A stretch of DNA of 64,000 bases from Escherichia phage Barry: sequence record LR880803; one strand, given 5' to 3'. Made by a program: the position numbers and the translations under genes. This document shows, piece by piece, positions 38,139 to 57,656 of the stretch. The notes under the pieces were generated by a model. The model was given only the letters and a program-made list of their open reading frames with translations, searched no databases and had not been told where the DNA came from. Numbering within the stretch: position 1 is the first letter of the stretch; every line of letters begins with the position of its first letter.

Positions 38139-38199
38139 AAGCCCTCCTATATAAGATATAGTATAAGGTACTCTTCCCTGAGCACCTTGTCAATACTAA

Positions 38200-38760
38200 T
38201 CAGTGTACCTCATACCAGCTTTTACCAACCTTACCAGTACCTGTAACAAGTGTTTCTTTCTTAAGACCTAAGTTCTTAGAAGCTTGTCCATAATACCAGT
38301 CAGTAACTGCCTTCACCTCTGCCGTCATACTTTCTGGGCATTCCCAACTTGTCTCGTCGTGATAGGAGCACAATAAACGAGCACCTATAGCTGGTTTACG
38401 ACCGTTCAACTTCATCAAACCTTCGTCAATCATACGACGGCAAGCAAGGTTAATTGCTTCATTCTGAACCTGCGCCTCACTACCCATAAGTGTGTAATTC
38501 AATAACTTATGTGGAGATTTACACCATAACCACGCTCCAGCGACCTGAATGTACCCACCCTTAGCGATTGCAGCACTCTTGCCGAAAACCTCTTCTAATG
38601 CCTTCTTAGTGGCCTTAAAATCGGCTTCTAAGTTATCAAGTAGTTTCTTAATCTTTGGTAGACGCATATAGTAGGTCTGCTTAGTCAATGCACCTTCCTC
38701 TGTAGAAGCTGCCTTAATGGTTTTGGCAAACTTCTCATCACCTGCACCGAACAATACATC
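38200..38760 (-). CDS. DNA polymerase (family A, T7-like), 3' exon carrying second half of motif B and motif C
   Basis: Begins (L)FGAGDEKFAK (T7 YGAGDEK) and has motif C LCSYHDE; no ATG start and an in-frame TGA just upstream, so it must be joined to the upstream exon. Confidence 0.7.
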   Translation of the reverse strand, partial: DVLFGAGDEKFAKTIKAASTEEGALTKQTYYMRLPKIKKLLDNLEADFKATKKALEEVFGKSAAIAKGGYIQVAGAWLWCKSPHKLLNYTLMGSEAQVQNEAINLACRRMIDEGLMKLNGRKPAIGARLLCSYHDETSWECPESMTAEVKAVTDWYYGQASKNLGLKKETLVTGTGKVGKSWYEVH

Positions 38761-39565
38761 TGGTCAATACACTCGCAAGGTGTACCAGTTCTCTTATGAA
38801 CTTCTCCGCATTTCTACGGAGTGTCGGACTATATCACGTAGTAGTAATACTACCGTTGCACTTGGGAATGGTCATTAGCTTACCACCCTACTCTACTCAG
38901 TTCATACATTAAGTATGCTTTTCGATAGTCTCTGAACGTTTCTCTGTTAGGAACTCTAAAATACTATTATTTACTAAGGTATGCAATTGCTCTCTTCATG
39001 TTCTCTATACTATCTGAGAACAGCCCAAGACCTCTGTTACAGTTGTGACACAGCATACCTCTTACCTGTCCTGTTTTGTGGTCATGGTCAACAACCAGCT
39101 TGGCTTTATGTCTTGAACCATCCATGATAAAACCTTCACCACCGCAGATTTGACACTTGTGACCACACTTACTTAGTAACTCTTCGACCTCTTCTCTTTC
39201 TAAGCCGTAAGTCCTTAAGTAATAGTTCTTTACCCTTCCCTTTTCTCCACAAGCAGAACTGCAATACGTCTGTCTTGCTGTTCTAGGTGTAAACTGGTTA
39301 TTGCAACTTGGACATATTTTCTCTATGACACGACTTGCTGCTCTTCTGTCTACTTCAAGAACGCAGTTTCTACAACGTTTTTGATTGTACTGATATGGCT
39401 TAAACTCTTCGCCACATCTGGAACAAACTCTTTCTTTATAACCTGCCATTGTCTCTCTCCCATTTCTACTATAGGAGTCCTAACAGAGACTTCGCTGCTG
39501 ATTACCATATCTTTTAAGACTTAGGCTTCCAGCAATTCACAACGTTTTACATGCGCCACTGACGC
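38761..39565 (-). other. intervening sequence (probable self-splicing intron) in the DNA polymerase gene
   Basis: ~0.8 kb separates ...AKNGIY from ...FGAGDEK at the same point in motif B and carries a free-standing HNH ORF; exact splice sites not determined. Confidence 0.55.
38967..39449 (-). CDS. HNH homing endonuclease (intron-encoded)
   Basis: HNH motif VVDHDHKTGQVRGMLCHNCNRGLG and N-terminal CxxC zinc-binding pairs; lies wholly within the polymerase intervening sequence. Confidence 0.75.
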   Translation of the reverse strand: MAGYKERVCSRCGEEFKPYQYNQKRCRNCVLEVDRRAASRVIEKICPSCNNQFTPRTARQTYCSSACGEKGRVKNYYLRTYGLEREEVEELLSKCGHKCQICGGEGFIMDGSRHKAKLVVDHDHKTGQVRGMLCHNCNRGLGLFSDSIENMKRAIAYLSK

Positions 39566-41704
39566 ATAGATACCATTCTTAGCCTTCTTACGGCCTTTAG
39601 TTATCTCGTGAAGGAGTTCCTCATCCTGTGTCTCTCTACAACGGATAATATCTTCTTCTTTGTTCAATGCAAAATAGATACTGTTAAGTGTATGCGCATC
39701 AGTACCTGTGTAGACTTCATACAAATCATTATCAGCATCGTAACGACAATATTTATCAGCCTCTGGATTTAGGTACTTATCAAGATGCTTGCAGTAGTAT
39801 CGTCCATCATCCTGTTTAGTGAACTCTACAAACTCTTTACCTTCAGTTACCGCTTTGGTGAAGTCTTTATCACCCATAAAGTTACACAGTAAAACAAGCT
39901 GTGCAGAGTTCTGGTCAACTGAAACGATATTAGTCCCTTCCTCACAAATCCACACCTCCCTCATAGGTGCTCCATAGACAGCAGCACCAGACGGTACGTT
40001 TACAATACCATATTGTGTCATACGTCCAGTTGAAGTACCAAACACCATTGCACCAGCACTAAGGCGACCATCTGGACGAATCTGGTTCAACCAACCTTTT
40101 TCATCATCCTTTGAGTTCTCAATAGTTCTGCGTCGGTGCATCAAAGTATAGTACTTAGCAATCTTCTGTCCAAGTTCACCTTCAATCGTATCATAAGATG
40201 ATTCAGTAAGTTTTGGTGAAGTACGGATTAAGCAAGGCTCAAGCAAATCTGTGTACTTCTTCACAGACCAGTTATGCTCAATGTACTGTACACCTTCATG
40301 TTCAACATAACTCAAACCACACCGCTCAACCATTTCCTGCCACTTAGGATGTTTTGTAATCATCTTTTTATTGTCTTTGAAACGACAAACTTTGACAGGG
40401 CGACCATCAGAGTCTTTCTTGTAGTTCCAGTCATCTGGAATCCAACCAACTGATTTCAAGTAGTCTTTAACAACTGCTACCTGAGTCATACGAGAAACTT
40501 CAAACTCAATTGGTGTATATGGTGCATCAATCAAACCTGTGTAGCGACTTGACTCAAGTTCAAAGTGGTTAACAACGTGGCTGTTATAATACTTCACAGT
40601 TTTAACTGTTTTTACTGGCTTCCAGTCTTTGCATTTCTTACCAATCTTTGCGTTCAACTCATTGCAAATTGCACGAGCATCCTTCATTGCTACAAAGCCT
40701 TCCTTGTACTCTTCACCAGTTACAGTGTTGGTTGGTGTATAGCAATTCCTTTTTTCAATGTTAAAAATCTTTGTAGTTGGCTTACCAAATGGTTTGATTT
40801 CGTATGTCTGCATCTCGCCATTACGTACCTGCTGACGATACTTTGTCTTAGGGTACTTGGTAATTCTTTTCAGTCCATCTGCATGACCAAATGTTTCAAC
40901 ATACTCATTCCAAGCTTTTGCAAACTCTTCTCCAGTAACTTTACCTTTAGTCTTAATAGTTGGAGGAAGATGTGGTTCAACTTCTGAAGCAAGCTCATTA
41001 GTCAACTTGTCAAGTTCCTTTACATGGAACTCCATAAGCTCTTTATCAGCTTTCCAACCATTGATAGCTTGTTGACTCATCCAGAAAGATGTTTCTTTAG
41101 CTCGCATGTAAGTTTCATAAGTGTCTATACCACACTTCTTAAGCTTGAGATACTCGTTATCAAGTGCCCGTTTAGTTTTGGCGTTAATACGGATATCTTC
41201 TACAACACGAGTGAAGATTTCTGCATTCCACACACCCCAATGTTCAATCTCTGGTTTACGGACACCAACACGAGCACCCCATGCAGCCAAACCATGAGCA
41301 CCTTTATAACCCTTTGGAGTTGGCCTATCCATCCACTGAACACGAGACTGGATAAGAGAATCCTGAAAGAAATTACTCCACGGCTTACATTTTGGATTAT
41401 CAAAATTCCATAAATCAGGTGCAATGTGATTGAAAACCCACCAGTCATATCCGAGACCATTATGGATGCAAAGACGTTTTGCCTTTAACGCAAACTCAAT
41501 ACCTTCTCGTAAGCCACCCTTAATGTACTTAGTGTACTTGTGACCGAGGATAGGCTCATCTGTAAAGACCCATACAGGTGGCTCTTCATCGTCAGATTTA
41601 TAGTCTGCAAAGGCCATTACGTGAACTTTAGTGAACTCAAGGAGTAAACCATCAGTTTCTGTATCACCAACCAAATGTAAGTTTTTAAAATCTACGTTTT
41701 CCAT
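39566..41704 (-). CDS. DNA polymerase (family A, T7-like), 5' exon with 3'-5' exonuclease domain and first half of motif B
   Basis: Exo I motif VGDTETDGL; ends RKKAKNGIY (T7 RDNAKTFIY); ATG at 41704 with SD gaggga. Confidence 0.75.
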
Positions 41705-41734
41705 TTTTACTCCCTCTAAAACCATTAACCTCAT

Positions 41735-41961
41735 ACATTACTGCAAAAAATTATAAAAAGCAAGTTGACAATGCACTTGACAAGGTGTTAATCTTTGCGA
41801 AGTGGGTTTTTACTTAAAAGGTTACTTAACAGTTTAACTATACAGATACTTTAAAACTCTTAAAAGATTATTTAATAGCTTTTAAAAAGCTTTAAAGTAT
41901 AACGTATAGAATACGTTAAGATAAAAGATTAAAACTTAATAGTTACTTAAAAGAGGCTTAC
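41735..41961. promoter_or_regulatory. AT-rich divergent control region with TTGACAAGGTG promoter motif, ttacttaa repeats and a palindrome
   Basis: Between the divergent polymerase (minus) and 41962 (plus) genes; cacTTGACAAGGTGtta at 41774-41790; repeated ttacttaa(a/c)ag; inverted repeat aacgtata/atacgtt. Confidence 0.4.
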
Positions 41962-42384
41962 ATGCAGAAAATGTTTGTTCACCCAGACATAGCTGACTTT
42001 GTTAGAGCTTTGCAGAAGTTGGAAGAACTTGACATTGCTGCTCAACGGGAATATGCTCACCATCACAGGAGAATGGTTGATATACAACATGAAATAGAGT
42101 TGTCTGAAAACTATGAAGATGACTTGAAATGCTCTGTATTTGAGCATATGAAAGATGTTGCTACAGCTAGACGTAAAGCTAAAGACACAGTTGCTTTACT
42201 AGATTCTCTTAAAAAGAGGTTGCAAAGTGGTACAGACCTGTGTAATCTAGCGTCACTGATTAACGATGTTGAAACTTCTTGGGATAGGCACTATTATCCA
42301 CGTTCTGAAAAGACACTTGACTTTTCTTCATCCGAAAACTTAAAATGTTCTAGAAAGAAACTTAACCAACTGAGAGAGAAATAA
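41962..42384 (+). CDS. hypothetical protein
   Basis: 140-aa ORF, first gene of the plus-strand block. Confidence 0.45.
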   Translation: MQKMFVHPDIADFVRALQKLEELDIAAQREYAHHHRRMVDIQHEIELSENYEDDLKCSVFEHMKDVATARRKAKDTVALLDSLKKRLQSGTDLCNLASLINDVETSWDRHYYPRSEKTLDFSSSENLKCSRKKLNQLREK

Positions 42385-42385
42385 T

Positions 42386-43186
42386 ATGAATATCGATGTA
42401 GAAAAGATGCTTGAAGAAAAAGGTATTGACGAAGCATTTTTAATCAATGCCGTAGAAAGCATGGCTATGATTCTTCGTGGGAACAACTACACAGAACAGT
42501 TTATGCCTGCAAGCTATAATCTGCCTAAAGACAAGTCTGATAACGGTGCTTTTGCAGAACAGGTCAACATGATGCTGACAGACACTACACTTGCTTTGGC
42601 ATCTATAGTCGTAGGTGTTGATGCTCTTGCAGAGTTCATTTTTAAGGAGATGCAGAAAAATGATTATATCTCCCTTAACTCTGAAGAAAAGGACTTGTTA
42701 CTGTCATTAGGTAATAATGAGTTAATTTCCATGATAATTTCATCAACAAGTGCTGTTATGGCTGCTCTTGAGAAGCGAATGGAAGAGAAGCTGTCACGAT
42801 ATGAAAAACTTGATTGGGGGGTAGAAGAACTAAACCCACGAATCCAAGAAATTATCCAGCAAACTAAAGATTCTTTGGAAGAAGCTGTTGAAAATGACTC
42901 TGTAGCTGATATAGAACCACTTCAGGTGAAAGTTGCACTGATGATTCCAGCTATCTCTACGATGATGAATATCGTTGCACTAATCCAACTTTCGCAGATG
43001 ATGGGTATGAGTATTGAGTTCATTGAGGAGATGACTGGCGGTGTCAGTATGCAAGCAATCAATGATGTTTTGGTGAACATTGGTGCTTCAATCATTGAAG
43101 AGAAACTACGTATTAACTTCGGTGATGATTTTGTGAAGCAACTCTCAGCTATGGCTGAAAAAGAGTCTGCTGAGCAACTGCACTAA
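42386..43186 (+). CDS. hypothetical protein
   Basis: 266-aa acidic helical ORF. Confidence 0.45.
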   Translation: MNIDVEKMLEEKGIDEAFLINAVESMAMILRGNNYTEQFMPASYNLPKDKSDNGAFAEQVNMMLTDTTLALASIVVGVDALAEFIFKEMQKNDYISLNSEEKDLLLSLGNNELISMIISSTSAVMAALEKRMEEKLSRYEKLDWGVEELNPRIQEIIQQTKDSLEEAVENDSVADIEPLQVKVALMIPAISTMMNIVALIQLSQMMGMSIEFIEEMTGGVSMQAINDVLVNIGASIIEEKLRINFGDDFVKQLSAMAEKESAEQLH

Positions 43187-43203
43187 GTCTTTATAAATCT
43201 TAC

Positions 43204-43229
43204 AAGCCTCCTTAGTTGGGGGCTTTTTA
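43204..43229 (+). terminator. rho-independent terminator
   Basis: Hairpin agcctcc-ttagttg-ggggct followed by TTTTT. Confidence 0.5.
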
Positions 43230-43247
43230 GTAATTAATGGAGATAAA

Positions 43248-43991
43248 ATGAATAAAATCATCGCATTTACTGGAAAGGCACGTTCTGGAAAAGACACCTC
43301 ATGTTCTATTGTGAAGAACATCTTAGAGGATGAGTATGGCTACAATGTTGAAGTAATGGCCTTTGCAGACAACCTTAAACTATCTGCATCAAAGATATTT
43401 GACTTGACTTGGAATGACCTGTGCGGTGAAACTAAAGAGACTCCACAGGTTTTTGACTTATCATATCCTGAACTAATGTTTAAAGTTACGGAAGCTATGG
43501 AGTTCACCTTCAGAGATGAACGTTACCATATGGACTTCAAGCTTATGTCAGAGCTAACCGGACGATTAATCATGGAGCTTAAGAAGGTTGCTAAACCAAC
43601 TCTATTGACACGTCTGGGGTTTAGCAAAAAGTATAAATTCTCATCAAGACAAATTCAACAGATTTGGGGTACTGAAGTTGTCCGTAAAGTAATGGGCGAC
43701 AAGTTCTGGTCTAAAGACCTTGAAAAAAGAATGGTTAGATTCCATGAAATGTGCTCACTTAGAAATCAATATGGTTTTGTCTTAATCAGTGATTTAAGAT
43801 TTGACTCTGAAGCTGAATGGCTGAGTAGATTTGCACACCAAACTATTGAAGTAAAAAGAGACAATGTGGACAAAGTTTCATCACATGTTTCAGAAAATGG
43901 GATTTCTACAAAATATGAGCGTGACATTATTCATAATAATGGTACTCTTGCAGACCTTGAGAACAAGCTAAGAGCCATCATTAAAGTTTAA
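43248..43991 (+). CDS. deoxynucleoside monophosphate kinase (T4 gp1-like)
   Basis: N-terminal P-loop IIAFTGKARSGKDT resembling T4 gp1. Confidence 0.65.
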   Translation: MNKIIAFTGKARSGKDTSCSIVKNILEDEYGYNVEVMAFADNLKLSASKIFDLTWNDLCGETKETPQVFDLSYPELMFKVTEAMEFTFRDERYHMDFKLMSELTGRLIMELKKVAKPTLLTRLGFSKKYKFSSRQIQQIWGTEVVRKVMGDKFWSKDLEKRMVRFHEMCSLRNQYGFVLISDLRFDSEAEWLSRFAHQTIEVKRDNVDKVSSHVSENGISTKYERDIIHNNGTLADLENKLRAIIKV

Positions 43992-43999
43992 AAGAGATA

Positions 44000-44200
44000 A
44001 TGAAGATGAGAGTAAAAGACAATTTTAAAGTTATTGACCACCGTTTAGTGGAACTCTCATCTCTTTCCAATGAGGTAATGATTGAACGTCTTAAGAGAGT
44101 TGAATCACGAAGGAAAGAGATTGCAGATGAAATTCATGAACTGGACAAGATTGAAAACGGATTGAAGGCAGAACTACAACGAAGAGGTGCTAATGTCTAA
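44000..44200 (+). CDS. small coiled-coil protein
   Basis: 66-aa ORF overlapping the primase start. Confidence 0.35.
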   Translation: MKMRVKDNFKVIDHRLVELSSLSNEVMIERLKRVESRRKEIADEIHELDKIENGLKAELQRRGANV

Positions 44201-46178
44201 AGGTCGTAAATTGAAAGAGGCTGGTCAGTTTATTGGTCATTGTGCATGTCCACGTTGTGGTTCATCAGATGCTGGTTCAATCTATCATCATGACGATGAT
44301 TCTTATTCGATGACTTGCTTTAGTTGTAACAAAGGTTTCCCAGAGTGGGATTTTGATAAAGGACAAATCGTGAGCACTTATTCTACTGGTTCAGACAATA
44401 AAAACCGTACTTTCCGTGGAATGGATTTAGACGATGTGAAAGAAAACCTTGAAGCAATGGACTTAAAGGACAGGAAGATTCCTGCAAAAGTTCTTGAGCG
44501 TTTGGGTATCAAGGTTGACATTGACAGTGACGGTGAAATTGATGCACATTTCTACCCAACTTACAAACGCAATGAAGATGGCAAGCTAGAGCATGTTGGC
44601 TACCGTGTTCGTCACCGTTACCCAGAAGACCATCCAAAAGAGCACCTACGTGGTAAGTTAAAAGACTTCTCAGGTGGTGTTGGAGACATTAAAGGTGAAC
44701 TGGCAATGTTCGGTTCATGGATTGCTCCAGAAGGTGGTAACCGTCTATTCATCTGGGAAGGTGAGATGGAATGTGCGACAGCAATCTATATGACCTCTCT
44801 TGCGATTAAGGACAAGTCTCGTCGTAAGAATTACTGTCACGTATCTGTTCCATCAGGTGCAAACATTAAGTCTATCAAAGACAACTATCAGTACATTACA
44901 TCATTTGATGAAATTTACTTGTGCTTTGATAATGATGAAGCAGGTGCTAAAGCCACTAAAGAGGCTGCTGGCATTCTCCCTATCGAGAAGGTTCGTTTAT
45001 TCCAGTATCCAGAAGGCGTAAAAGACCTTAACGAGTGGTGGACAAAGTTCTATAAAGAGAAAGATACAGTTCTGGAAGGATTTAAGCAGCGTATCTACAA
45101 TGCACCCCGTTACTGTCCTGCTGGTATCAAGAACTTCGCAGATGGTTTTGAGGCAATGAAGAATCGTGGTCAGATTCCATTGATTCCTTTCCCAGAATCA
45201 TTCGGAGATTTGAACAGACTGACTTATGGTGGTTATGGGCTAGGTGAGATTACAACTCTGGCAGCACCATCTTCAGTGGGTAAATCAGCATACACTCGTG
45301 AAATGATTTACACAGCTTGGAAAGATACCGATTACAATATTGGTGTAATTCCTGTAGAGGATACCTATGAAGAGTTGATGGAGATGCTCTGTGCAATCCA
45401 CCTTAGCAAGCAGATTTCTGAGATTCCTTATGACGAACGTGATTGGGATGAATTGAAGGAAGCACACGCAGAACTATCTAAAGGTCGTCGTATCCACATC
45501 GTTGACCATCAAGGGGCAATTGACCAAGATAACTTGCTGGAATTTGTTGACTATCTTGTTAACAGTTTAGACTGTAAGATTATTATTCTTGACCCTATTA
45601 CGTTGGCTCTGTCACGTTCAGATACGGATGAAGAGGAAGTTTTGTCTGAGCTATTGCGTCGTTGCAAACGCTACCAGTATGCACAAGTGAACGTCTGTCA
45701 CGTTCGTAAGAGTGCAGGTGGTCAGAAGGCTAACTCTGAAGGTGGGGATATCTCTGAAGAGGATATTAAAGGCTCTGGTGCGTATTTCCAGATTTCTATG
45801 AACAACATTCTGTTAATGCGTAACAAGGTTGACCCAGACCCTGTTAAGAAAAACTTGACAAAAATCAAGCTAACTAAATGTCGTCGTCACGGTAAGTCAA
45901 CGGGTATTGCTGGTCATACTTGGTACAATCCAGATACAGGACGTCTCATTAAAGCATCTGGTTGTGGAGTTGACATTGATGGTGCAGCAGAAAATATTCG
46001 CCAACAGTTTGGCATTGGTGAAGCTGAAGACCATTACGATGACTCTTTGCCACATTATGAGGATGAAGTGTTTGACCGTGAGACTGGTGAAGTCTATACT
46101 GAAGAGCAGCGCCAAAGCTCAACGATTCCACCTGTATTAAGTGAGGATGCAGATGACTGCCCATTCGAAACTGAGTGA
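44193..46178 (+). CDS. DNA primase-helicase (T7 gp4-like)
   Basis: N-terminal zinc ribbon CPRCGSS...CFSCNKGF, central TOPRIM-like region, C-terminal helicase Walker A AAPSSVGKSAY; ATG at 44193 with SD gaagaggtg. Confidence 0.8.
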   Translation: MSKGRKLKEAGQFIGHCACPRCGSSDAGSIYHHDDDSYSMTCFSCNKGFPEWDFDKGQIVSTYSTGSDNKNRTFRGMDLDDVKENLEAMDLKDRKIPAKVLERLGIKVDIDSDGEIDAHFYPTYKRNEDGKLEHVGYRVRHRYPEDHPKEHLRGKLKDFSGGVGDIKGELAMFGSWIAPEGGNRLFIWEGEMECATAIYMTSLAIKDKSRRKNYCHVSVPSGANIKSIKDNYQYITSFDEIYLCFDNDEAGAKATKEAAGILPIEKVRLFQYPEGVKDLNEWWTKFYKEKDTVLEGFKQRIYNAPRYCPAGIKNFADGFEAMKNRGQIPLIPFPESFGDLNRLTYGGYGLGEITTLAAPSSVGKSAYTREMIYTAWKDTDYNIGVIPVEDTYEELMEMLCAIHLSKQISEIPYDERDWDELKEAHAELSKGRRIHIVDHQGAIDQDNLLEFVDYLVNSLDCKIIILDPITLALSRSDTDEEEVLSELLRRCKRYQYAQVNVCHVRKSAGGQKANSEGGDISEEDIKGSGAYFQISMNNILLMRNKVDPDPVKKNLTKIKLTKCRRHGKSTGIAGHTWYNPDTGRLIKASGCGVDIDGAAENIRQQFGIGEAEDHYDDSLPHYEDEVFDRETGEVYTEEQRQSSTIPPVLSEDADDCPFETE

Positions 46179-46248
46179 TAGTTATAAAAGAGAGGGGTTC
46201 ACACCCTTCTTTGAAGAAAAAAGTTTAAATAAATTTCAGGAAGAGTGT

Positions 46249-46277
46249 TTGACAAAGATTGATAGATTCTATAGAAT
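46249..46277 (+). promoter_or_regulatory. sigma70-like promoter (TTGACA-17-TAGAAT)
   Basis: -35 at 46249-46254, 17-nt spacer, -10 TAGAAT at 46272-46277; in the gap after the primase-helicase. Confidence 0.5.
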
Positions 46278-46430
46278 GCTCCTCATGAAATGCGATGGAG
46301 AGGTTGAGATAAAAGAAGATTTTCACCAGAGCATGATTACAGTCATCATTGCGCTGCCTCAGCATAATATTAGTTGGCTGTTTATAATTAAAGAAAATGT
46401 GTTTGAATATCAAGTATATCGGAGAATATC

Positions 46431-46580: not shown

Positions 46581-46587
46581 TTAGTAT

Positions 46588-46616
46588 TTGACAATAGAGT
46601 ATCAACAAATTAGAAT
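46588..46616 (+). promoter_or_regulatory. sigma70-like promoter (TTGACA-17-TAGAAT)
   Basis: -35 at 46588-46593, 17-nt spacer, -10 TAGAAT at 46611-46616, upstream of the SSB gene. Confidence 0.55.
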
Positions 46617-46652
46617 TGGTACTCTTCATAAATTGAGATAGAGGTTTAAATA

Positions 46653-50101: not shown

Positions 50102-50405
50102 TAAAGAGGGTGTAGCTCAGAAGAGCCACTTCTCAAACTACAATATTTCTATGACGGTGTTTATGAATGACCCGTTACTAGAAAAATATGGTGAGACTCC
50201 AGATACACTTCTGGACAATGAACAAGTTTTAAAAGCAGTCCTGTACAAATACGGTATTGATATTGAGAAAGAGTATTCTTTTGAAATCTGCCAACACAGA
50301 AACACTTTTGGTAAAGTTGTGATGGCTCCACTCTTTATGGGCGTAGAAAGGACTGACTATGGTTGGTTGTATCTAAAAAGAAACTTGGAGAAATACCGTG
50401 TCTAA
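50073..50405 (+). CDS. hypothetical protein
   Basis: 110-aa ORF. Confidence 0.35.
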   Translation: MVIMDSQNINKEGVAQKSHFSNYNISMTVFMNDPLLEKYGETPDTLLDNEQVLKAVLYKYGIDIEKEYSFEICQHRNTFGKVVMAPLFMGVERTDYGWLYLKRNLEKYRV

Positions 50406-50733
50406 AACAAAAAAGCTATCTTATGATGACATCATCTCAGGTGCTAAGTTAGGTGTTGACAGTATCGGACAAGATATCAAGCACGGAGACACAGTTATGT
50501 ACTGTGATGACCGAAGAGGAAGAAGCGCAATCTTGTTTGGGAGAATTGTTTGCAAGATGCGAGGTAATTATGTTGTTGCAGACATGGATGTGAACGTTAC
50601 ACAAAAACTTGAAACGATTATGGGTGATAATACACCGTCATGGCTCCTGAATTGTATGCACACCTCGTCAGTCACAAAAGTAAGTGATAAGTTTTACGAT
50701 ATGTGGCAGAATGAGCAAATTTTCAAGATTTAA
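50398..50733 (+). CDS. hypothetical protein
   Basis: 111-aa ORF with probable GTG start; followed by a terminator. Confidence 0.35.
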   Translation: MSKTKKLSYDDIISGAKLGVDSIGQDIKHGDTVMYCDDRRGRSAILFGRIVCKMRGNYVVADMDVNVTQKLETIMGDNTPSWLLNCMHTSSVTKVSDKFYDMWQNEQIFKI

Positions 50734-50737
50734 ACTA

Positions 50738-50762
50738 TGGAGCCTCTTCGGAGGCTCTTTTC
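50738..50762 (+). terminator. rho-independent terminator
   Basis: Hairpin ggagcctc-ttcg-gaggctc followed by TTTT. Confidence 0.6.
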
Positions 50763-50779
50763 ATCTGTAGGATTCAAAA

Positions 50780-53014
50780 ATGATTAAGACAATTAAAAAA
50801 TCAAACGGTACAGTAGTAAGCTTTGACCCAGAAAGACTGAATAAGTGGGCATCATGGGCAGATAAACGTGGGATTATCTGGTCAGAAGTCACTATGGAAG
50901 CCATGAAACGTGTCTATGAGGGTTGCACTACAAAAGAGATGCACCAAGCCATGATTGATGTTTGTGTTGATAAACAAACTCAAGAGTACTCAGATATGGC
51001 TGGACGACTGCTTTTGGGTATTATCTACAAAGAAGCCTTTGGAGGCTTTACTAAGGTTCCTACGCTGATTACCTTCGTTAAAAATATGGAGAGAGCAGGA
51101 CTTTGGGAGAAGATGGACTATTCACAGGAAGAGCTTGAATACCTGCAAGGTTACATCGTACACTCAAAAGATATCTCTTACGGTTATGCAGTCTTAAAAC
51201 AGTTCAGAGACAAGTATGGTATCCGTGATATTAAAACGGGAAGACTTTTTGAGTCACCACAATTTATGTTTATGGGTATGGCTATGAAAGCCTTTGAGAA
51301 GCAACCAAAGCACCGTAGACTGCAAGATGTTATCAAGCTGTACACTTACCTATCTGACCTGAAGATTAACGCTCCTACGCCTTATTTAAACGGTTTAAGA
51401 GCAACTAAATCAGGCTATGCGTCATGCTGTTTGATTAAGGCAAATGATACTGCTGAATCACTTGGTATTGCTGCAAAGGTTGCTTATGATATGACTACAA
51501 AGCAAGCTGGTATTGGGATGCTGATGGAGACTCGCACTATTGGTGATGGTATCCGTCAAAATACTATTGAGCACATGGGTAAGCTACCTTATTACAAGCT
51601 TGTACGTTCATCTGTAGAGGCAAATAAACAGAAGAGTCGTGGTGGTTCAGCTAATAACTTCTACACTGCTCTAGACCCGCAGATTGAAGATTTACTGCGT
51701 TTGAAGCACCCTACAACGGTTCCTTCTAAACGTATTAATGAGATGGACTACTCATTCGGCACAAACGATTATTTCTGGCAGTGTGTTCAGTATGATACAG
51801 ATTGGTTGCTATTCTCTTACAAAGATGCACCAAAACTCTATGACATGTTCTACACAGCATCTGCTGATGAGTTTGCTATGGCAGTTGGTCATGCAGTACA
51901 TTCAGGTGTTAAGCACAGACGGGTAAAGGCTCGTGAAATTGCTAAGCTGTTTATTCAACAGCGTTATGCTACAGGCCGTGTGTATCCATTCTTCACTAAC
52001 AATGCAAACACACATACACCATTTAAAGAACCATTGAAGATGTCAAATCTTTGTATGGAAATTGTATTGCCAGTGTATGGTTTTGAGAAAGAGACAGACC
52101 TTTACAGAGACGATGCTGTGAAAGAGGATGGTGAGGTGGCTCTTTGCTTCCTAGCTAGTTTGGTTGCAGGGAGAATTTCAGAAGATGAATACGCTGACGT
52201 TGCTTATTATGCTCTTGCAATGGTTGACTCCGTTATTGACCTTATGGATTATCCGTATCCGTCGATGCGTAACCATGTTCAGAAGCGTCGTTCTGTTGGG
52301 ATTGGCCTTACAAATGTGGCTCATTACCTTGCGAAGAACTACGTGAACTACTCTTCACGAGCAGGTAAAACGAAACTTCATGAACTTGCAGAGATGCACT
52401 CTTACTATCTGCATGAAGCCTCTCTGAGACTTGCTAAAGAGCGTGGTGTTCCAGAGTACATGAAGTTCACTAAGTATCCTGAAGGCTGGGTTCCTCCAAA
52501 GACAGCCAACAAGAAGATTGATGAAAAGCATGATGCAAAACTACGATATGATTGGGATGACTTAGCACAACGTATCAAAGAAAATGGTGGAATCCGAAAC
52601 TCTGTATTAGAAGCTTACATGCCTAATGAGAGTTCTTCACTGGCAACTAATACGACAAATGGCCTGTACCCAATTCGTGACTTTATTTTAACTAAAAAGT
52701 CTGCAACTGGTAACGTGTTGTTTATTGTTCCAGATTATGAAGAGTTGAAGTATGTATATGAAATTGCTTGGGGTATTGACACCTTTGACCTGATTGATTG
52801 TTATGCAATTGTTCAAAAGTTCACTGGTCAAGCTATCTCTTCAGATTTTTATGTTGACTACGCAAAAGCTAAGAAGGTATCATTAGCTCAAGCTTTGAAA
52901 TACATGATTTATGCTAACTCAGTAGGTATGAAAACCATGTACTACCTTAACAGTCGCATTGGTGTAGGTAAATCTGCACTACAAGATGCTTATTGCGAGG
53001 GTTGTGGTGTTTAG
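50780..53014 (+). CDS. nrdA: ribonucleoside-diphosphate reductase large subunit (class I, NrdA-like)
   Basis: N-terminal ATP-cone-like region, catalytic core (NLCMEI) and C-terminal CEGCGV cysteine pair. Confidence 0.8.
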   Translation: MIKTIKKSNGTVVSFDPERLNKWASWADKRGIIWSEVTMEAMKRVYEGCTTKEMHQAMIDVCVDKQTQEYSDMAGRLLLGIIYKEAFGGFTKVPTLITFVKNMERAGLWEKMDYSQEELEYLQGYIVHSKDISYGYAVLKQFRDKYGIRDIKTGRLFESPQFMFMGMAMKAFEKQPKHRRLQDVIKLYTYLSDLKINAPTPYLNGLRATKSGYASCCLIKANDTAESLGIAAKVAYDMTTKQAGIGMLMETRTIGDGIRQNTIEHMGKLPYYKLVRSSVEANKQKSRGGSANNFYTALDPQIEDLLRLKHPTTVPSKRINEMDYSFGTNDYFWQCVQYDTDWLLFSYKDAPKLYDMFYTASADEFAMAVGHAVHSGVKHRRVKAREIAKLFIQQRYATGRVYPFFTNNANTHTPFKEPLKMSNLCMEIVLPVYGFEKETDLYRDDAVKEDGEVALCFLASLVAGRISEDEYADVAYYALAMVDSVIDLMDYPYPSMRNHVQKRRSVGIGLTNVAHYLAKNYVNYSSRAGKTKLHELAEMHSYYLHEASLRLAKERGVPEYMKFTKYPEGWVPPKTANKKIDEKHDAKLRYDWDDLAQRIKENGGIRNSVLEAYMPNESSSLATNTTNGLYPIRDFILTKKSATGNVLFIVPDYEELKYVYEIAWGIDTFDLIDCYAIVQKFTGQAISSDFYVDYAKAKKVSLAQALKYMIYANSVGMKTMYYLNSRIGVGKSALQDAYCEGCGV

Positions 53015-53069
53015 TTTTAACAACTATGAGGGTCGTAAAAGACCATCTAAAAATAACTTTGGAGAGACC

Positions 53070-53345
53070 ATGTTAGAACTTATTAAAGCTGCAAGATTGA
53101 GAAGTAAAGATAGCTCATTGTATTTGTATTATGCGCCAAGAAAATCACTGTACTATATTGCAGATTTAGATTTAAAAGTTAAAATGCCAGATGGCTCTTG
53201 GAAAGAGCATATACGTTACACTGACTGTTTCAATCCTAAACAGACATATGCAAGGCCACTTGACATGTTTAAAACCGAACGCTGGGTTGTAATGACAACA
53301 CCTGAAGCCAGAGAATTTCTTAATACAGGAAGATTACCAGAATGA
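53070..53345 (+). CDS. hypothetical protein between nrdA and nrdB
   Basis: ATG at 53070 with SD ggagag; the track start at 52986 overlaps nrdA. Confidence 0.4.
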   Translation: MLELIKAARLRSKDSSLYLYYAPRKSLYYIADLDLKVKMPDGSWKEHIRYTDCFNPKQTYARPLDMFKTERWVVMTTPEAREFLNTGRLPE

Positions 53346-54415
53346 TTAACCAACACCCAATCTTTTTAGGTGGTGAGAGAAAAACTTTTGACTCACTTAA
53401 CAAGCACTACCCAAAAATCTTTGAACTTTATAAACAACAAAAAGCACAAGACTGGTCAGAAGATGAGTTCCCTTTTGAACAATCACGTCTTGATTTTGAG
53501 AGTGTCCCAGCATCAATGTCAGGTGTAATGCTTGAGATTCTTAAGTGGCAATGGGAAGCGGATACTCAAGTTGCTAAGAGCTTGGCATTTGCCTTTGCAC
53601 CCTTTATTTCTGATGACATCTATGCAACTGCAATTATGAAGCAGTCTGAGATTGAAAACCTACATGCTCTTACTTACTCAGAGATTGTAAGGCAATGTAT
53701 TAAAAACCCTGAAACAATCTTAGATGAGATTAACCAGAATGTTGCTGTACAAGACCGATTAAAAACTGTGAATCGTGTTCTTGAAGAATTACTAGATGAA
53801 GGTATAAACTACCGACTGAGTTATGTCCGTGGCTCACTTCTGGACAAAGACCCTTTACACTTCCATAAAGTGATTCTGAAAGGTCTATTTGCAGTGACTG
53901 CACTGGAAGGTATATCTTTTATGGCATCCTTTGCATGTACTTTTGCACTTGATGCTCAAGATAAATTTCAGGGTATTGCTCAAGCGGTACAGAAAATTAT
54001 GCTTGACGAAATCCTTCACACTAAAATTGATATTGAAGTTTTAAAAGAAACTTTAAGAGATGATGAGTGGCAGAAAGCTTTTCAACAAATTCTTCCAGAG
54101 ATTAAAGTAATCTTAGATGAAGTAGTTGAAAGTGAAGAGAAATGGTCGTATTATATCTTCTCCGAAGGACGTGCTGTAGTTGGCTTAAATACAAAGCTTC
54201 TTCATGAGTGGGTTTACTATAATGCTGCCCCGCTGTATGACATGTTTGGCATTCAAAGAGATTTTGTAGCTCCTAAAGAACCACCTTTGAAGTACATGAT
54301 TAAGAAGATGGAAATTGATAAAGAGCAGAATGCTAATCAGGAGCAACAGAACGGTGCGTACCTGTTGAATACTGTTGTAGACGATTTGAATAGTGGATTT
54401 TTAGAGGTTCCTTAA
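53342..54415 (+). CDS. nrdB: ribonucleoside-diphosphate reductase small subunit (NrdB-like)
   Basis: Ferritin-like protein directly downstream of nrdA with conserved E/H-containing helices. Confidence 0.75.
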   Translation: MINQHPIFLGGERKTFDSLNKHYPKIFELYKQQKAQDWSEDEFPFEQSRLDFESVPASMSGVMLEILKWQWEADTQVAKSLAFAFAPFISDDIYATAIMKQSEIENLHALTYSEIVRQCIKNPETILDEINQNVAVQDRLKTVNRVLEELLDEGINYRLSYVRGSLLDKDPLHFHKVILKGLFAVTALEGISFMASFACTFALDAQDKFQGIAQAVQKIMLDEILHTKIDIEVLKETLRDDEWQKAFQQILPEIKVILDEVVESEEKWSYYIFSEGRAVVGLNTKLLHEWVYYNAAPLYDMFGIQRDFVAPKEPPLKYMIKKMEIDKEQNANQEQQNGAYLLNTVVDDLNSGFLEVP

Positions 54416-54657
54416 TGACTTATGTAATTTACTCCAAAACTGGATGCCCTCAGTGTGAGACTGCAAAGAATTTTGCAAAAGCTCGTGGTATTGACCACGT
54501 TGTGAGAATGTTAGGGCAGGATTATGAGCTATCAGACCTGATGGATATTGCACAGATGCCAGTTCGTCAGATGCCATTCATCATGAAAACTGATGGACAA
54601 AACCTAAAACCTGTTGGTACGCTACAGAATTTTATGGCAGAGGTGAATAATGCTTAA
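54415..54657 (+). CDS. nrdH: glutaredoxin-like protein (NrdH/Grx)
   Basis: 80 aa with CPQC redox motif; coupled to the nrdB stop. Confidence 0.7.
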   Translation: MTYVIYSKTGCPQCETAKNFAKARGIDHVVRMLGQDYELSDLMDIAQMPVRQMPFIMKTDGQNLKPVGTLQNFMAEVNNA

Positions 54658-54856
54658 ACGCCTTTGGGAAGGTTTGGTTGTTGATGCACCAGCTATTGTG
54701 ATTGGTATGCTTATTGTTAACCTATTTACTGACTTTGAACAAGGTTCATTGTTTGGAGCCATGTTACTATGGGTTATCTTTGAAATATTAGAGATACAAC
54801 TAGGCATCACTGAAAAACTAAGAAAACTCGTTTCAAAGTTTTCTAAAAAGATTTAA
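54650..54856 (+). CDS. small membrane protein
   Basis: 68-aa hydrophobic ORF. Confidence 0.35.
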   Translation: MLKRLWEGLVVDAPAIVIGMLIVNLFTDFEQGSLFGAMLLWVIFEILEIQLGITEKLRKLVSKFSKKI

Positions 54857-54862
54857 AATGAA

Positions 54863-54886
54863 AGGGTCTCTTCGGAGACCTTTTTA
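54863..54886 (+). terminator. rho-independent terminator
   Basis: Hairpin gggtctc-ttcg-gagacc followed by TTTTT. Confidence 0.6.
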
Positions 54887-54904
54887 GCATGTAAAGGGGT
54901 AATA

Positions 54905-57049
54905 ATGAACAAAGTACAGATTATTAAAAAGAATGGCTCACTTGAAGAACCCGATATCAAAAAAGTTTTAGCAGCAGTAACTAAGTCAGCTAACAGGGTT
55001 GGATATAAAGAACTTCCACCAGATGTTACCCAAGCTCTTGAGTCAGCATTTATGAGGATTCTGGTAAAGTCCACTAAGCAGAATAATTTGCTCATCTCGG
55101 TAAATGATATTCACAGTATTGTTGAGGGTGCTTTGGCAGAAGTCAATCACGAGATTTATGAGTCTTACTCAACATATAGAAATTACCGTAAAGAGGTTGC
55201 TCAAAATTGGGACGAGCTTTACCAAAAGACTAGGGATACACTCTTCTTAGGTGACCGTGAAAATGCTAACTTTGACAGTAGTTTAATTTCTACAAAAGGC
55301 TCAATTATTCGTGGTTACTTGACTAAAGAAATCTTTAAACAGTACCATTTAACACCAGAGGAACTTGAAGCCATTGAAAAAGGGTTTATCTACATCCATG
55401 ACTTAAGAGACCTAATTTTTGGTGGTATCAACTGTTGCCTGTTTGACATCGGCAAAGTACTGAAAGGTGGCTTTGAAATGTCTGGTATCGAATACTGTGA
55501 ACCAAAGTCTGTGCTGTCAGCCTTACAGGTTATTGGTGATGTAGTTCTTTCAGCAACTGCACAGCAATTTGGTGGCTTTACTTTAGCAGAGATTGATAAG
55601 GTACTTGTGCCGTATGCTAAAAAATCTTTAGTGTACCACTCAGAGAAAGCTGAAGAGTACGGAATCCCTAAAGAGCAACACTATAATTACGTAATGGAGC
55701 AATTACAGAATGAGTTAACACAAGGTTTCCAATCTCTTGAAATGAAACTCAACACTGTTCCTTGCAGTCGCGGTGATTTTGCATTTACTACTCTGACATT
55801 TGGCCTGTTGGAACCAGATATGCACAATGAAGATAACCGTCTTCAGTTTATGATTGCTAATACAATCCTTAATGTAAGGATGAACGGGCAAGGGAAAAGC
55901 AAAAAACCTGTTGTTTTTCCTAAACTTGTGTATATCTATGAAGAGACAAGACATAAACTTGATGTATGCCAAGCAAGGTTGTTTGAAAAAGCTATTGAGT
56001 GTTGCTCTAAAGCGATGTATCCAGATTTCTTAAGTGTATCTGGTCATGGTGCTGTAGCAGATGCTTTTGAGCGTTCTGGTAAGGTGATTTCACCGATGGG
56101 TTGCAGAGCTTTCTTGTCTCCATATCTTAATGATAACGGAGAGGAGTTCTATGTAGGTCGTGCTAACATCGGTGCTGTTTCTTTGAACTTACCAATGATT
56201 TACCAGTATTCTAAAGAGAATGGTTTAGATTTCTGGAAAGAGCTTGATAAGTACCTAGAAATGATTCGTAGTTTCCACAAGAAACGCTATGAAATGATTG
56301 CCAATATGCCAGCAAGTTCTAACCCTCTTGCATTTACACAAGGTGGTCTGTACAAAGGAACTAAGAAGCCTACTGACAGGGTTGGTTGGGATATTGTGAA
56401 GTCCTTCACAGCTTCTTTTGGGGTTACTGCGCTTGATGAGCTATCTGTTCTTGCTGAAGGTAAACGACTTCATGAAGTTGGAAGCTATAGTTTTGCATAT
56501 GATGTTCTGGCATACATCAACATGAAAACTGAAGAGTTTAAGAACGAAGATGGCTTCTTGTATGCGGTATATGGCACTCCAGCAGAATCACTTTGTGGAA
56601 CTCAGTTAAAACAGTTCAGAGATATGTTTGGCGTTATTAAAGGTGTCTCTGACAAGGAATACTTTACAAACAGTTTCCATATGAATGTTGCAGCAGACAT
56701 CTCACCATTTGAGAAGCAGGACTTAGAAGAGCCATTCTTCCATATCTGTAGAGGTGGTAGAATCCAGTATGTAAGAGTAGCTAACCCAGAAAACTTAACA
56801 GCACTTAAAAGTTGTATTACCAGAGGGATGTTGAAGGGTTTTTATCAGGGACTTAACTTTGACTTAGCAATCTGTGAACATTGTGGTAACAGACCAAAGG
56901 CTGATGTTGAAGAATGTGAGGTTTGTCATTCACACGATATCTCTGTGATTAACAGGGTGTGCGGGTACTTGTCATTCACAAAAATTAAAGGTCAGTCTCG
57001 AATGAATGACGCTAAGATGGCAGAAATTAAGGATAGGGTTTCTATGTAG
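54905..57049 (+). CDS. nrdD: anaerobic ribonucleoside-triphosphate reductase (class III, NrdD)
   Basis: 714 aa with N-terminal ATP-cone-like region, C-terminal glycyl-radical motif NRVCGYL, and CxxC zinc-site motifs (CEHCGN, CEVCHS). Confidence 0.8.
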   Translation: MNKVQIIKKNGSLEEPDIKKVLAAVTKSANRVGYKELPPDVTQALESAFMRILVKSTKQNNLLISVNDIHSIVEGALAEVNHEIYESYSTYRNYRKEVAQNWDELYQKTRDTLFLGDRENANFDSSLISTKGSIIRGYLTKEIFKQYHLTPEELEAIEKGFIYIHDLRDLIFGGINCCLFDIGKVLKGGFEMSGIEYCEPKSVLSALQVIGDVVLSATAQQFGGFTLAEIDKVLVPYAKKSLVYHSEKAEEYGIPKEQHYNYVMEQLQNELTQGFQSLEMKLNTVPCSRGDFAFTTLTFGLLEPDMHNEDNRLQFMIANTILNVRMNGQGKSKKPVVFPKLVYIYEETRHKLDVCQARLFEKAIECCSKAMYPDFLSVSGHGAVADAFERSGKVISPMGCRAFLSPYLNDNGEEFYVGRANIGAVSLNLPMIYQYSKENGLDFWKELDKYLEMIRSFHKKRYEMIANMPASSNPLAFTQGGLYKGTKKPTDRVGWDIVKSFTASFGVTALDELSVLAEGKRLHEVGSYSFAYDVLAYINMKTEEFKNEDGFLYAVYGTPAESLCGTQLKQFRDMFGVIKGVSDKEYFTNSFHMNVAADISPFEKQDLEEPFFHICRGGRIQYVRVANPENLTALKSCITRGMLKGFYQGLNFDLAICEHCGNRPKADVEECEVCHSHDISVINRVCGYLSFTKIKGQSRMNDAKMAEIKDRVSM

Positions 57050-57056
57050 CATACAA

Positions 57057-57614
57057 ATGAATTACGAACTAATATATAATGCAATTATTAAGAAGGCACA
57101 TTCTGAAAGGGGTGTGCCTCTTACATACTACAAATGTCAAGGTAAGGGTTATGAAAGACACCATATCATACCAGTATGTCTAGGTGGCGATAAAATTAGT
57201 GGAGATAATATTGCTTTACTTACACCTAGAGAGCATTATATAGCTCATAAACTACTGGTTAAGATGTATCCAAACAATCATAAGTTATGGTTTGCATGGA
57301 ACAGGCTAGCTCATGATGGCCTAGATAGGAAAATATCATCCAGAGACTATGAAAAGGTAAGGGCTTTGAACTCGAAAGCTCTATCTATTGTGAATAAAGG
57401 TAGGGTTTTCACTGAAGAACATCGAAGACGATTAGGAGAATCTCAAATAGGCAATACAAAGTCAAAAGGTTGTAAGAGGTCTATAGAAACAAGGAAGAAG
57501 ATGTCAGAAGCCGGAAAAAAGCCAAAGAAAAAGAAAACTTGCCCTCATTGTGGCATGACTGGTGGTGCTGGTAACATGACTCGATATCATTTTGACAATT
57601 GTAAGAAAAAATAA
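57057..57614 (+). CDS. HNH homing endonuclease between nrdD and nrdG
   Basis: HNH motif YERHHIIPVCLGGDKISGDNIALLTPREHYIAH; C-terminal CPHC zinc-finger-like motif. Confidence 0.6.
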   Translation: MNYELIYNAIIKKAHSERGVPLTYYKCQGKGYERHHIIPVCLGGDKISGDNIALLTPREHYIAHKLLVKMYPNNHKLWFAWNRLAHDGLDRKISSRDYEKVRALNSKALSIVNKGRVFTEEHRRRLGESQIGNTKSKGCKRSIETRKKMSEAGKKPKKKKTCPHCGMTGGAGNMTRYHFDNCKKK

Positions 57615-57627
57615 CCTATGTAAAACT

Positions 57628-57656
57628 TGACAAGGTGATGTGGGTCTTGATAGGCT
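57628..57656 (+). promoter_or_regulatory. candidate promoter with extended -35 motif TTGACAAGGTG
   Basis: aacTTGACAAGGTGatg at 57625-57641, same motif as at 41777 and on the minus strand near 38190; -10 is weak. Confidence 0.3.

Follow-up and report, generated by a model that had tools for sequence, protein, structure and literature searches.

The window, the whole stretch of 64,000 nucleotides analysed here from Escherichia phage Barry (LR880803), is Felixounavirus DNA with 99.9% identity to phage Tribble across 37000–43000. It contains exactly three copies of the 11-mer TTGACAAGGTG, located as follows:

38183–38193, minus strand (read 38193–38183): site 1, exact copy, after the DNA polymerase gene
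41777–41787, plus strand: site 2 (its box 2), exact copy
57627–57637, plus strand: site 3, exact copy

All three copies are non-coding and are oriented in the same way as the genes downstream, and in Tribble a fourth copy (site 4) is found just beyond the window edge. The initial annotation of the stretch had placed the repeat at these three positions, and the copies there proved to be exact, but a 12-mer with a leading C occurs only at 41776 and 57626, with A preceding site 1. The motif search across the genome that it had proposed was run within the window and returned the three exact copies, whereas shuffled sequences gave a mean of 0.06 matches. The distance of 120–190 nt given there between each copy and its first gene holds for site 2 (185 nt, ATG at 41962) but not for site 1 (55 nt, ATG at 38138) or site 3 (59 nt, ATG at 57686).

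A triple 11-mer is not rare in itself, because the window contains 158 different 11-mers with three or more copies, which is the argument for attributing the recurrence to chance. However, TTGACAAGGTG is the only one of them outside the tRNA zone with every copy non-coding, non-coding sequence making up just 4% of the window outside that zone, and none of 100 shuffles reached three matches. In addition, all copies are kept at orthologous places in the three genera Felixounavirus, Suspvirus and Mooglevirus, the word being exact at the orthologous sites of ASO1A, Felix O1, Suspvirus SUSP1 and Mooglevirus HP1. The probability that the recurrence is due to chance is negligible. A literature search for TTGACAAGGTG in a phage context found no paper mentioning the 11-mer.

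One related copy was present elsewhere, between a protein gene and the tRNA array:

1110–1120, plus strand: 10/11 copy TTGACAATGTG, a candidate −35 within a hairpin GGGTA...TACCC, with TAATAT 17 bp on

The Felix O1 sequence orthologous to this region corresponds to terminators t42/t43 of the published list (PMC3185647).

A role of the word as the target of a homing endonuclease was considered, as HNH genes lie immediately 5' of site 1 in Felix O1, ASO1A and SUSP1 and of site 3 in the window and SUSP1. This was ruled out, since these two groups of HNH genes are not related to each other and the word also occurs in places that have no HNH gene. Consensus sites of the host regulators FNR, CRP, IHF and NrdR were compared by eye, and none fits.

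Sites 1 and 3 and their hairpins

At both sites a TTGACA hexamer stands 17 or 18 bp before a −10-like hexamer, and the remainder of the 11-mer enters a hairpin:

38193–38188, minus strand: proposed −35 TTGACA of a promoter for the small-ORF cluster following the DNA polymerase gene
38165–38170, minus strand: −10-like hexamer TACCTT, 17 bp past the −35
38165–38188, minus strand: hairpin AAGGTGCTC-AGGGAA-GAGTACCTT, 9 pairs including one G.U, its 3' arm being the −10 hexamer
57627–57632, plus strand: proposed −35 TTGACA, with AAGGTG starting the terminator stem
57632–57673, plus strand: intrinsic terminator of nrdD, 16-pair stem, loop TGAT, then TTTTTT
57648–57656, plus strand: extended −10-like TGATAGGCT, its hexamer at 57651–57656, 18 bp past the −35 and in the 3' half of the stem

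Starts are predicted at about 38158 for site 1, upstream of the ATG at 38138, and at about 57663 for site 3, upstream of the ATG at 57686. An extended −10 TG is present at site 3 (TGA-TAGGCT) and absent at site 1 (GAG-TACCTT).

The site 1 word is exact in 23 of 24 relatives, and its TTGACA shows no change among 24 sequences. Conservation begins at TTGACA regardless of whether the polymerase gene or an HNH gene lies upstream. Variation of the hairpin among relatives is confined to the loop, and TACCTT is invariant apart from a single TACCAT, which is closer to the −10 consensus and costs the hairpin one stem pair, making it weaker. The hairpin is stable (−16.3 kcal/mol, z −3.7), but with no U-tract after it site 1 does not qualify as an intrinsic terminator; for this reason the hairpin would more likely be a 3'-end or stability element. 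Kolesnikvirus lacks TTGACAAGGTG and has a plain TTGACA-N17-TATCTT at the site-1 position, after the polymerase gene, with no hairpin.

At site 3, 20 of 27 relatives have the exact word, the variants being TTGACATGGTG (five), TTGACAATGTG (one) and TTGACGAGGTG (one), and TTGACA carries one A-to-G change among 27 sequences. The hairpin has the features of an intrinsic terminator and is the best one in 38000–57900 (−24.8 kcal/mol, z −5.0); in the window it serves an HNH gene inserted after nrdD, the stem with its T-run directly following the stop codon. Changes in the 5' arm are transitions that preserve pairing, and the length of the T-run varies, indicating that the region is non-coding. TCTTGATAGGCTT is invariant in the 27 sequences despite the variable opposite arm.

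These features could also be explained if sites 1 and 3 were RNA hairpins or terminators only, the downstream genes being expressed by read-through from promoters in the site-2 region. Site 3 is a textbook terminator and is annotated solely as a rho-independent terminator in ASO1A (TransTermHP and WebGeSTer predictions), both −10 candidates lie within stems, so that their invariance could reflect pairing alone, and hairpins account for the conservation of AAGGTG. Yet TTGACA lies outside both stems, is almost invariant and opens the conserved block, and in every genome 17 or 18 bp separate it from TAnnnT. The TACCAT variant improves the −10 at the expense of a stem pair, the Kolesnikvirus promoter exists with no hairpin, and expression of nrdG and the genes next to it would be poor if transcription did not restart after the strong terminator of site 3. 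We consider it fairly unlikely that the two sites are hairpins alone.

In the promoter reading, TTGACA at sites 1 and 3 would act as −35 for a TAnnnT −10 (TACCTT; TGA-TAGGCT) at a spacing of 17 or 18 bp, while AAGGTG would be the 5' foot of an RNA hairpin formed only in transcripts coming from upstream. The hairpin of site 3 would act as a strong intrinsic terminator. Each cassette would therefore end or insulate the transcript arriving from upstream, which at site 3 is that of nrdD or of an inserted HNH gene and at site 1 that of the polymerase gene, and would then restart transcription for the next small-gene cluster. A promoter-plus-hairpin layout was also found at 1110, 34019, 46588 and at 81199 of Tribble.

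Site 2 and the proposed tandem-box promoters

Sites 2 and 4, located in the genome's two divergent regions, have another architecture. They share about 30 nt, with gaps, and are 42 kb apart in Tribble. At site 2 the following elements were recognized:

41743–41764, plus strand: A-rich, UP-element-like tract upstream of the promoter
41765–41770, plus strand: box 1, TTGACA, the properly spaced −35, 18 bp before TAATCT
41789–41794, plus strand: −10 TAATCT preceded by TGT (TAGTCT in Mooglevirus HP1)
41812–41823, plus strand: leader box ACTTAAAAGGTT, the same box following all three tandem-box promoters of the genome
41859 and 41946: extra copies of CTTAAAAG in the site-2 leader

The predicted start is at about 41801, giving a leader of about 160 nt to the ATG at 41962. 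Similar A-rich tracts precede other TTGACA promoters of the genome. Box 1 is invariant in 27 sequences, and in the ASO1A GenBank record a promoter is annotated from it, paired with GTTAAT (16 bp) and not with TAATCT (18 bp). Box 2, the TTGACAAGGTG copy itself, is a second −35-like box within the spacer, and its final TG is the TG of the extended −10; it, too, shows no variation across 27 sequences, in contrast to the 5-nt linker that separates the two boxes. At site 4 the TG directly abuts the −10 hexamer. Promoters at sites 2 and 4 would thus consist of an A-rich tract, TTGACA at the canonical −35, the 11-mer as spacer box and TG(n)TAnnnT.

Alternative assignments at these sites were rejected. 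When the TTGACA of the 11-mer itself is taken as −35 at sites 2 and 4, no TAnnnT is present 16–18 bp on (AAGTGG; TACTTA), and a minus-strand promoter at site 2 using the reverse complement TTGTCA as −35 for the perfect TATAAT at 41755–41750 would have spacers of 10 or 22 bp. Neither site is a convincing terminator; the site 2 fold is weak (z −2.2), with no same-strand gene upstream. An Rfam search found no RNA family in the site-2 leader and, at gathering score, only tRNAs across the window.

The second TTGACA box lies 11–13 bp downstream of the true −35 and ends 4–6 bp before the −10, and purifying selection acts on it in each of the three tandem-box promoters that Felix O1-like phages carry. 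It might serve as a docking place for another sigma region 4 or polymerase, or for a phage factor. That it forms a functional part of a distinct tandem-box early-promoter design is a tentative suggestion to which we assign a rather low probability, and it poses a small question of phage promoter design. In an IMG/VR scan with the 11-mer plus TAnnnT, most matches were chance-like; those that were informative carried another TTGAC box upstream. At least 93 different contigs of environmental viruses, T4-like ones among them, contain the layout TTGAC-N6/7-TTGACA-NNN-TG-(N)-TAnnnT, a count not controlled for chance.

Alternatively, a DNA-binding protein of the phage might use the word or the second box as its operator. 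One candidate is the XRE-type HTH protein encoded at 33356–33057, which when bound would shut off or tune early promoters by masking the −35 or the spacer. The selection on the second box, although it lies in the spacer, would be consistent with this, as would the 9-bp palindrome CTTGACAAG and the HTH_3 domain of the phage-encoded protein (E 5e-10), which also gives a sub-threshold match to sigma-70 region 4. However, the palindrome extends no further than TTGACAA itself gives, its leading C is missing at site 1 and, in other genera, at site 3, and AGGTG is asymmetric. The sites show no coordinated change within a lineage, and the match to sigma-70 region 4, being under the Pfam cutoff, is typical of HTH cross-matching. 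An operator is quite unlikely on these grounds.

Proposed promoter class and comparison with known systems

Considering the above results, we propose that the three copies and the fourth outside the window are −35-type boxes of promoters for host RNA polymerase with sigma-70, and that the 11-mer is not one recognition unit; we put the probability of this reading at roughly 0.6. The 11-mer is a composite, with TTGACA as a sigma-70 −35 box and the bases after it part of a hairpin (sites 1 and 3) or, in the final TG, of the extended −10 (site 2). From the sequence we infer that polymerase starts at the sites, when the genes are expressed and what the second box might do. TTGACAAGGTG is thus a fairly ordinary promoter feature and not evidence for a special phage sigma.

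The association with promoters made in the initial annotation is supported. A perfect sigma-70 −35 hexamer (6/6 TTGACA) is present at all three sites and in box 1 of site 2, and it is correctly spaced from a TAnnnT (the spacers are 17 bp for TACCTT and 18 bp both for TAGGCT and, counted from box 1, for TAATCT). Conservation begins at TTGACA, and a sigma-70-like promoter occupies the orthologous place in Kolesnikvirus, whose divergent region also contains sigma-70-like promoters. TTGACA and −10 positions 1, 2 and 6 are invariant, while the linker between the boxes and the −10 interior vary (TAGGCT, TAGCCT, TAAGTT, TAGTGT; TAATCT, TAGTCT). This signature of fixed key positions, with a free spacer and −10 interior, is clear at sites 2 and 4 and the third tandem promoter. 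The −10 elements had been called weak, and TACCTT, TAATCT and TAGGCT do match the consensus at only 3/6 positions, but all three retain T-12, A-11 and T-7. A consensus promoter scan had no discriminating power (46 found vs 51 expected) and did not list the three −10s.

The initial annotation had proceeded from the weak −10 to a single extended motif read by a phage-encoded or modified sigma or an activator, and this part is not supported, on several counts. The properly spaced −35 of site 2 is the other TTGACA, 12 bp upstream of the 11-mer, while AAGGTG forms the foot of a hairpin at site 1 and of the nrdD terminator stem at site 3. Relatives differ at positions 7–9 of the word in sites 1, 3 and 4 with no coordinated change at the other sites of the same genomes, which speaks against the 11-mer being recognized as a whole. 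Because the −10 elements keep TAnnnT, they do not require a special sigma; together with a consensus −35 (9/12 matches) they are within the range of ordinary sigma-70 promoters. What would still speak for a distinct promoter class is that 11 bases are common to four copies per genome and that the −10 hexamers, matching at 3/6, are of a TAnnnT-only type resembling that of T4 middle promoters. However, sigma-70 region 4 can bind unaided because the −35 is a perfect sigma-70 consensus, and the position of the word differs: it occupies the −35 of sites 1 and 3 but falls within the spacer of sites 2 and 4. Genes for a sigma factor or for AsiA-like or MotA-like proteins are absent from the annotation of the four records examined and from the Felix O1 paper, which reports no RNA polymerase and no known modifier of the promoter specificity of the host polymerase (PMC3185647). 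A distinct class is highly unlikely. The host-promoter reading accounts only in part for the GGTG shared after TTGACAA, whose presence in four unrelated contexts is, by a rough estimate, far beyond chance.

T4 middle promoters combine a MotA box at −30 with a TAnnnT −10 and depend on sigma appropriation by MotA and AsiA. The sites described here are alike in a −10 reduced to TAnnnT and in a longer conserved element in the −35/−30 region. In contrast, the element is the sigma-70 −35 consensus and not the MotA box TGCTT: TTGACAAGGTG, at −35 to −25, does not match (a/t)(a/t)(a/t)TGCTT(t/c)A, and no MotA/AsiA homologue is annotated in the four records or the Felix O1 paper.

E. coli sigma-70 promoters serve lytic coliphages for their early genes and have a consensus −35, an UP-element and an extended −10 (TGn). 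With these the sites share perfect TTGACA, spacers of 17–18 bp, the retained T-12/A-11/T-7, TGn before the −10 (sites 2 and 3), the A-rich tract (site 2) and a position at the head of gene clusters. They differ in the G+C-rich −10 interiors (TACCTT, TAGGCT), the extra, conserved TTGACA that the spacers of sites 2 and 4 contain and the overlap with hairpins (sites 1 and 3), the starts here being predicted ones. Site 3 also resembles rho-independent terminators, including those that overlap promoters in compact phage genomes, in its G+C-containing stem, 4-nt loop and T-run, but its stem has a conserved −35 at the 5' foot and a −10-like element in the 3' arm.

These elements provide a concrete, testable map of promoters and terminators that covers part of the replication and nucleotide-metabolism region in Felix O1-like phages, which are widely used in Salmonella and E. 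coli typing and biocontrol; the current understanding of transcription is unchanged by them. The Felix O1 genome paper saw no obvious promoter in the polymerase-side divergent region (genes 96–97) and left read-through of many terminators unexplained (PMC3185647). The terminator-plus-promoter cassettes of sites 1 and 3 may offer a simple answer, stopping transcription and then restarting it. The RT-PCR timing in that paper is of coarse resolution and does not cover the gene after site 1; a literature search found no transcript maps or 5'-end or 3'-end data for any Ounavirinae phage, and the BPROM table for UAB_Phi87 held no usable match.

PAK_P1/KPP10-type phages, placed with Felix O1-like phages in a proposed subfamily, carry comparable cassettes, in which TTGACA-N17-TAgAAT occurs several times with conservation extending past the hexamers and which were interpreted as early promoters of the host polymerase. 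Their copies are identical at 32/41 nt and clustered in one early region, whereas the phage studied here has no clustered, near-identical repeat of at least 30 nt containing both hexamers; its copies share 11 nt, are scattered and belong to two architectures.

The 11-mer and its setting

The triple occurrence of TTGACAAGGTG (the 11-mer) proposed in the initial annotation was confirmed, with exactly three copies in the window, at 38193-38183 (minus), 41777-41787 (plus) and 57627-57637 (plus). In 100 shuffles the mean was 0.06 matches, and three were never reached. A triple 11-mer is by itself unremarkable, as the window contains 158 different 11-mers with three or more copies; TTGACAAGGTG is the only one of these outside the tRNA zone with every copy non-coding, and just 4% of the sequence outside that zone is non-coding. 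A fourth copy is found at Tribble 13042 (plus), about 900 bp ahead of the window start in the other divergent intergenic region. Over 37000-43000 the sequence shares 99.9% identity with Escherichia phage vB_Eco_Tribble and 90-95% with about 200 Felix O1-like phages (Ounavirinae, Felixounavirus). The plus strand carries the genes up to about 30.4 kb and the minus strand those from there to 41734, where the DNA polymerase gene starts; from 41962 genes are again on the plus strand.

All three window copies face their downstream genes. The distance of 120-190 nt claimed earlier held for site 2 only (185 nt, ATG 41962), the first start codon being 55 nt away at site 1 (ATG 38138) and 59 nt at site 3 (ATG 57686). 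The T-run at site 3 differs in length among genomes, and therefore the stretch preceding ATG 57686 cannot be coding.

Predicted promoter anatomy and proposed mechanism

Sites carrying the 11-mer, and a related tandem-box promoter
Site 1: 38193-38165, minus; TTGACA-N17-TACCTT; hairpin AAGGTGCTC-AGGGAA-GAGTACCTT (-16.3 kcal/mol, z -3.7) without U-tract, its 3' arm being the -10
Site 2: 41743-41794, plus; A-rich tract, TTGACA (41765), 6 nt, TTGACAAGGTG, T, TAATCT; folds only weakly (z -2.2)
Site 3: 57627-57673, plus; TTGACA-N18-TAGGCT, TGA ahead of the hexamer; hairpin with a 16-pair stem and a TGAT loop (-24.8 kcal/mol, z -5.0), TTTTTT directly after it
Site 4: Tribble 13030-13058, outside the window; TTGACA, 6 nt, TTGACAAGGTG, TAGGCT; no hairpin by folding (z +0.5)
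Third tandem-box promoter: Tribble 2629/2642; second box TTGACATTGG

The site-3 hairpin is the best terminator-like site within 38000-57900 and is annotated in the ASO1A record as a rho-independent terminator after nrdD. At site 2, the first TTGACA (box 1) is the properly spaced one, 18 bp from the -10; the 11-mer with the second TTGACA (box 2) falls inside the spacer, and its last TG is the TG of an extended -10. The ASO1A annotation of this promoter also begins at box 1, but pairs it with GTTAAT at 16 bp. Site 4 has the same layout, with a spacer of 17 bp counted from its box 1.

The 11-mer is a composite word. Its TTGACA(A) would serve as the -35 box, GGTG at sites 1 and 3 would form a G+C-rich hairpin foot, and the final TG at sites 2 and 4 would belong to the -10 region. 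The simplest mechanism would be stop-and-restart: the upstream message would be terminated or insulated at the hairpin, and the host polymerase would then re-initiate for the following gene cluster. Of the predicted promoters in the divergent regions, sites 2 and 4 look like the main ones. By a rough estimate, GGTG after TTGACAA in four contexts is far above chance, possibly reflecting common descent of the cassettes or some shared constraint.

The promoter reading of the initial annotation was partly right; its appeal to a special phage sigma is unsupported, and the observed patterns do not require one. The -35 consensus plus TAnnnT gives 9/12 matches, a score usual for functional promoters of E. 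coli. Neither a phage polymerase nor a specificity factor was reported for Felix O1 (PMC3185647). Among known systems, ordinary sigma-70 early promoters that have UP and extended -10 elements come closest, as do intrinsic terminators; the sites fall outside the T4 middle-promoter definition. As a finding this is genuine and has biological meaning, yet it is ordinary in kind, with promoter activity predicted from sequence.

Conservation and tandem boxes

Felix O1, ASO1A, Suspvirus SUSP1 and Mooglevirus HP1 each match all three window sites 11/11 at the orthologous position. Larger samples per site were drawn from IMG/VR.

Variability at each site
Site 1 (n=24): varying, word position 7 (one change), hairpin loop, one TACCAT; fixed, remaining word and both stem arms
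Site 2 (n=27): varying, linker between boxes, one -10 interior change (TAGTCT); fixed, both boxes
Site 3 (n=27): varying, positions 6 (once), 7 (five times) and 8 (once), 5'-arm transitions; fixed, TCTTGATAGGCTT
Site 4 (n=30): varying, linker, positions 8-9 (GG, CG, GC, GA), -10 interior (TAGGCT, TAGCCT, TAAGTT, TAGTGT); fixed, both boxes, TG plus TA...T

The TACCAT variant has a better -10, but loses one stem pair, and the 5'-arm transitions at site 3 keep pairing intact. The conserved block at site 1 starts exactly at TTGACA, irrespective of the upstream gene, and the third tandem promoter varies in a like manner. These putative promoters vary as expected of sigma-70 promoters, with the -35 and T-12/A-11/T-7 fixed and the interior and spacer free, and the alignments clearly point to selection on box 2 despite its spacer position. 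Positions 7-9 of the 11-mer are not fixed, and their changes within a lineage are not coordinated among sites. In Kolesnikvirus (Erwinia and Cronobacter phages) the 11-mer is absent; TTGACA-N17-TATCTT stands downstream of the polymerase gene there, and sigma-70-like promoters lie in the divergent region.

An IMG/VR scan that imposed the tandem layout but no bases at positions 7-9 gave at least 93 different candidate promoters. Among the matches listed, the unconstrained positions look like those of real promoters: the -10 interior is enriched for TATAAT, the upstream sequence is A-rich, and C precedes box 2 in 63%. Positions 7-9 show no enrichment of AGG in these matches.

The arrangement TTGAC-N6/7-TTGACA-NNN-TG-(N)-TAnnnT is common in environmental viral contigs (IMG/VR loci L103-L325; for example L103 3519-3547, L105 5657-5685 and L224 8735-8763), often with CTATGT or GGTGT after it. 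L105 and L107, which came from an earlier 11-mer scan and share the layout, are T4-like by their neighbour genes (gp4/gp2; gp13/gp14), and their boxes lie between late structural genes, pointing against them. One tandem family shares about 90% identity over 37 nt with the predicted promoter at site 4 of Felix O1.

Leaders, further cassettes and neighbouring genes

At all three tandem-box promoters, ACTTAAAAGGTT lies 17-40 nt past the -10, and additional CTTAAAAG-like copies follow it as far as the start codon (leaders: window 41795-41961 at site 2; Tribble 2660-2818 and 13060-13179). In the window, three exact copies fall in a stretch of 140 nt, against 13 window-wide, and these boxes could serve as a control site for a protein or at the RNA level. 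The site-2 leader also holds a palindrome, AGCTTTT-A-AAAAGCT (41877-41891), and a hairpin, AACGTAT-AGA-ATACGTT (41901-41917), in which SUSP1 (TACGTAT/ATACGTA) and HP1 (TATGTAT/ATACATA) show compensatory changes; an Rfam search of this leader gave no match. Several CTTAAAAG copies, on both strands, occur in 1.5 kb without annotated gene at Tribble 3730-5312, outside the window.

Cassettes combining a predicted promoter with a hairpin recur in this genome.

Further cassettes
1110: listed in Felix O1 as terminators t42/t43 (PMC3185647)
33985-34050, minus: 13-bp inverted repeat AAATAAGCTATAA...TTATAGCTTATTT around a TTGACA box (cassette 34019)
46588: window and SUSP1 stems differ in sequence, pairing kept
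Tribble rIIA/rIIB junction

A T-run and TATACT come after the repeat at 33985-34050 (-17.8 kcal/mol, z -4.3), which makes this a further predicted terminator-promoter overlap.

The DNA polymerase gene (38200-41734, minus) is split by a 766-nt insert (38755-39520), its parts corresponding to residues 1-721 (5') and 723-907 (3') of the intact ASO1A polymerase. The insert carries an Endonuclease VII family ORF (39449-38967; Pfam E 6e-20) and matches Rfam group I introns twice below threshold (E 0.0011 and 0.42); a group I intron that harbours a homing endonuclease is its probable identity. The nrdD stop codon is separated from the nrdD terminator by an inserted free-standing endonuclease gene of the HNH/NUMOD3 type (57050-57626, likely start 57057); because its 3' end duplicates the nrdD end (CTATGTAA), insertion right at the stop codon is suggested. 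The equivalent slot 5' of site 1 holds unrelated HNH genes in Felix O1, ASO1A and SUSP1. Annotation of the phage names a single transcription regulator, a small XRE-type HTH protein (33057-33356, minus; Pfam HTH_3, E 5e-10), with a sub-threshold match to sigma-70 region 4 (22 bits, cutoff 24.1). Finally, the 12-mer TAAAATGTTTAA has three plus-strand copies (49118, 57774 and 63954), and the ORF at 57778 starts with the ATG of the copy at 57774.
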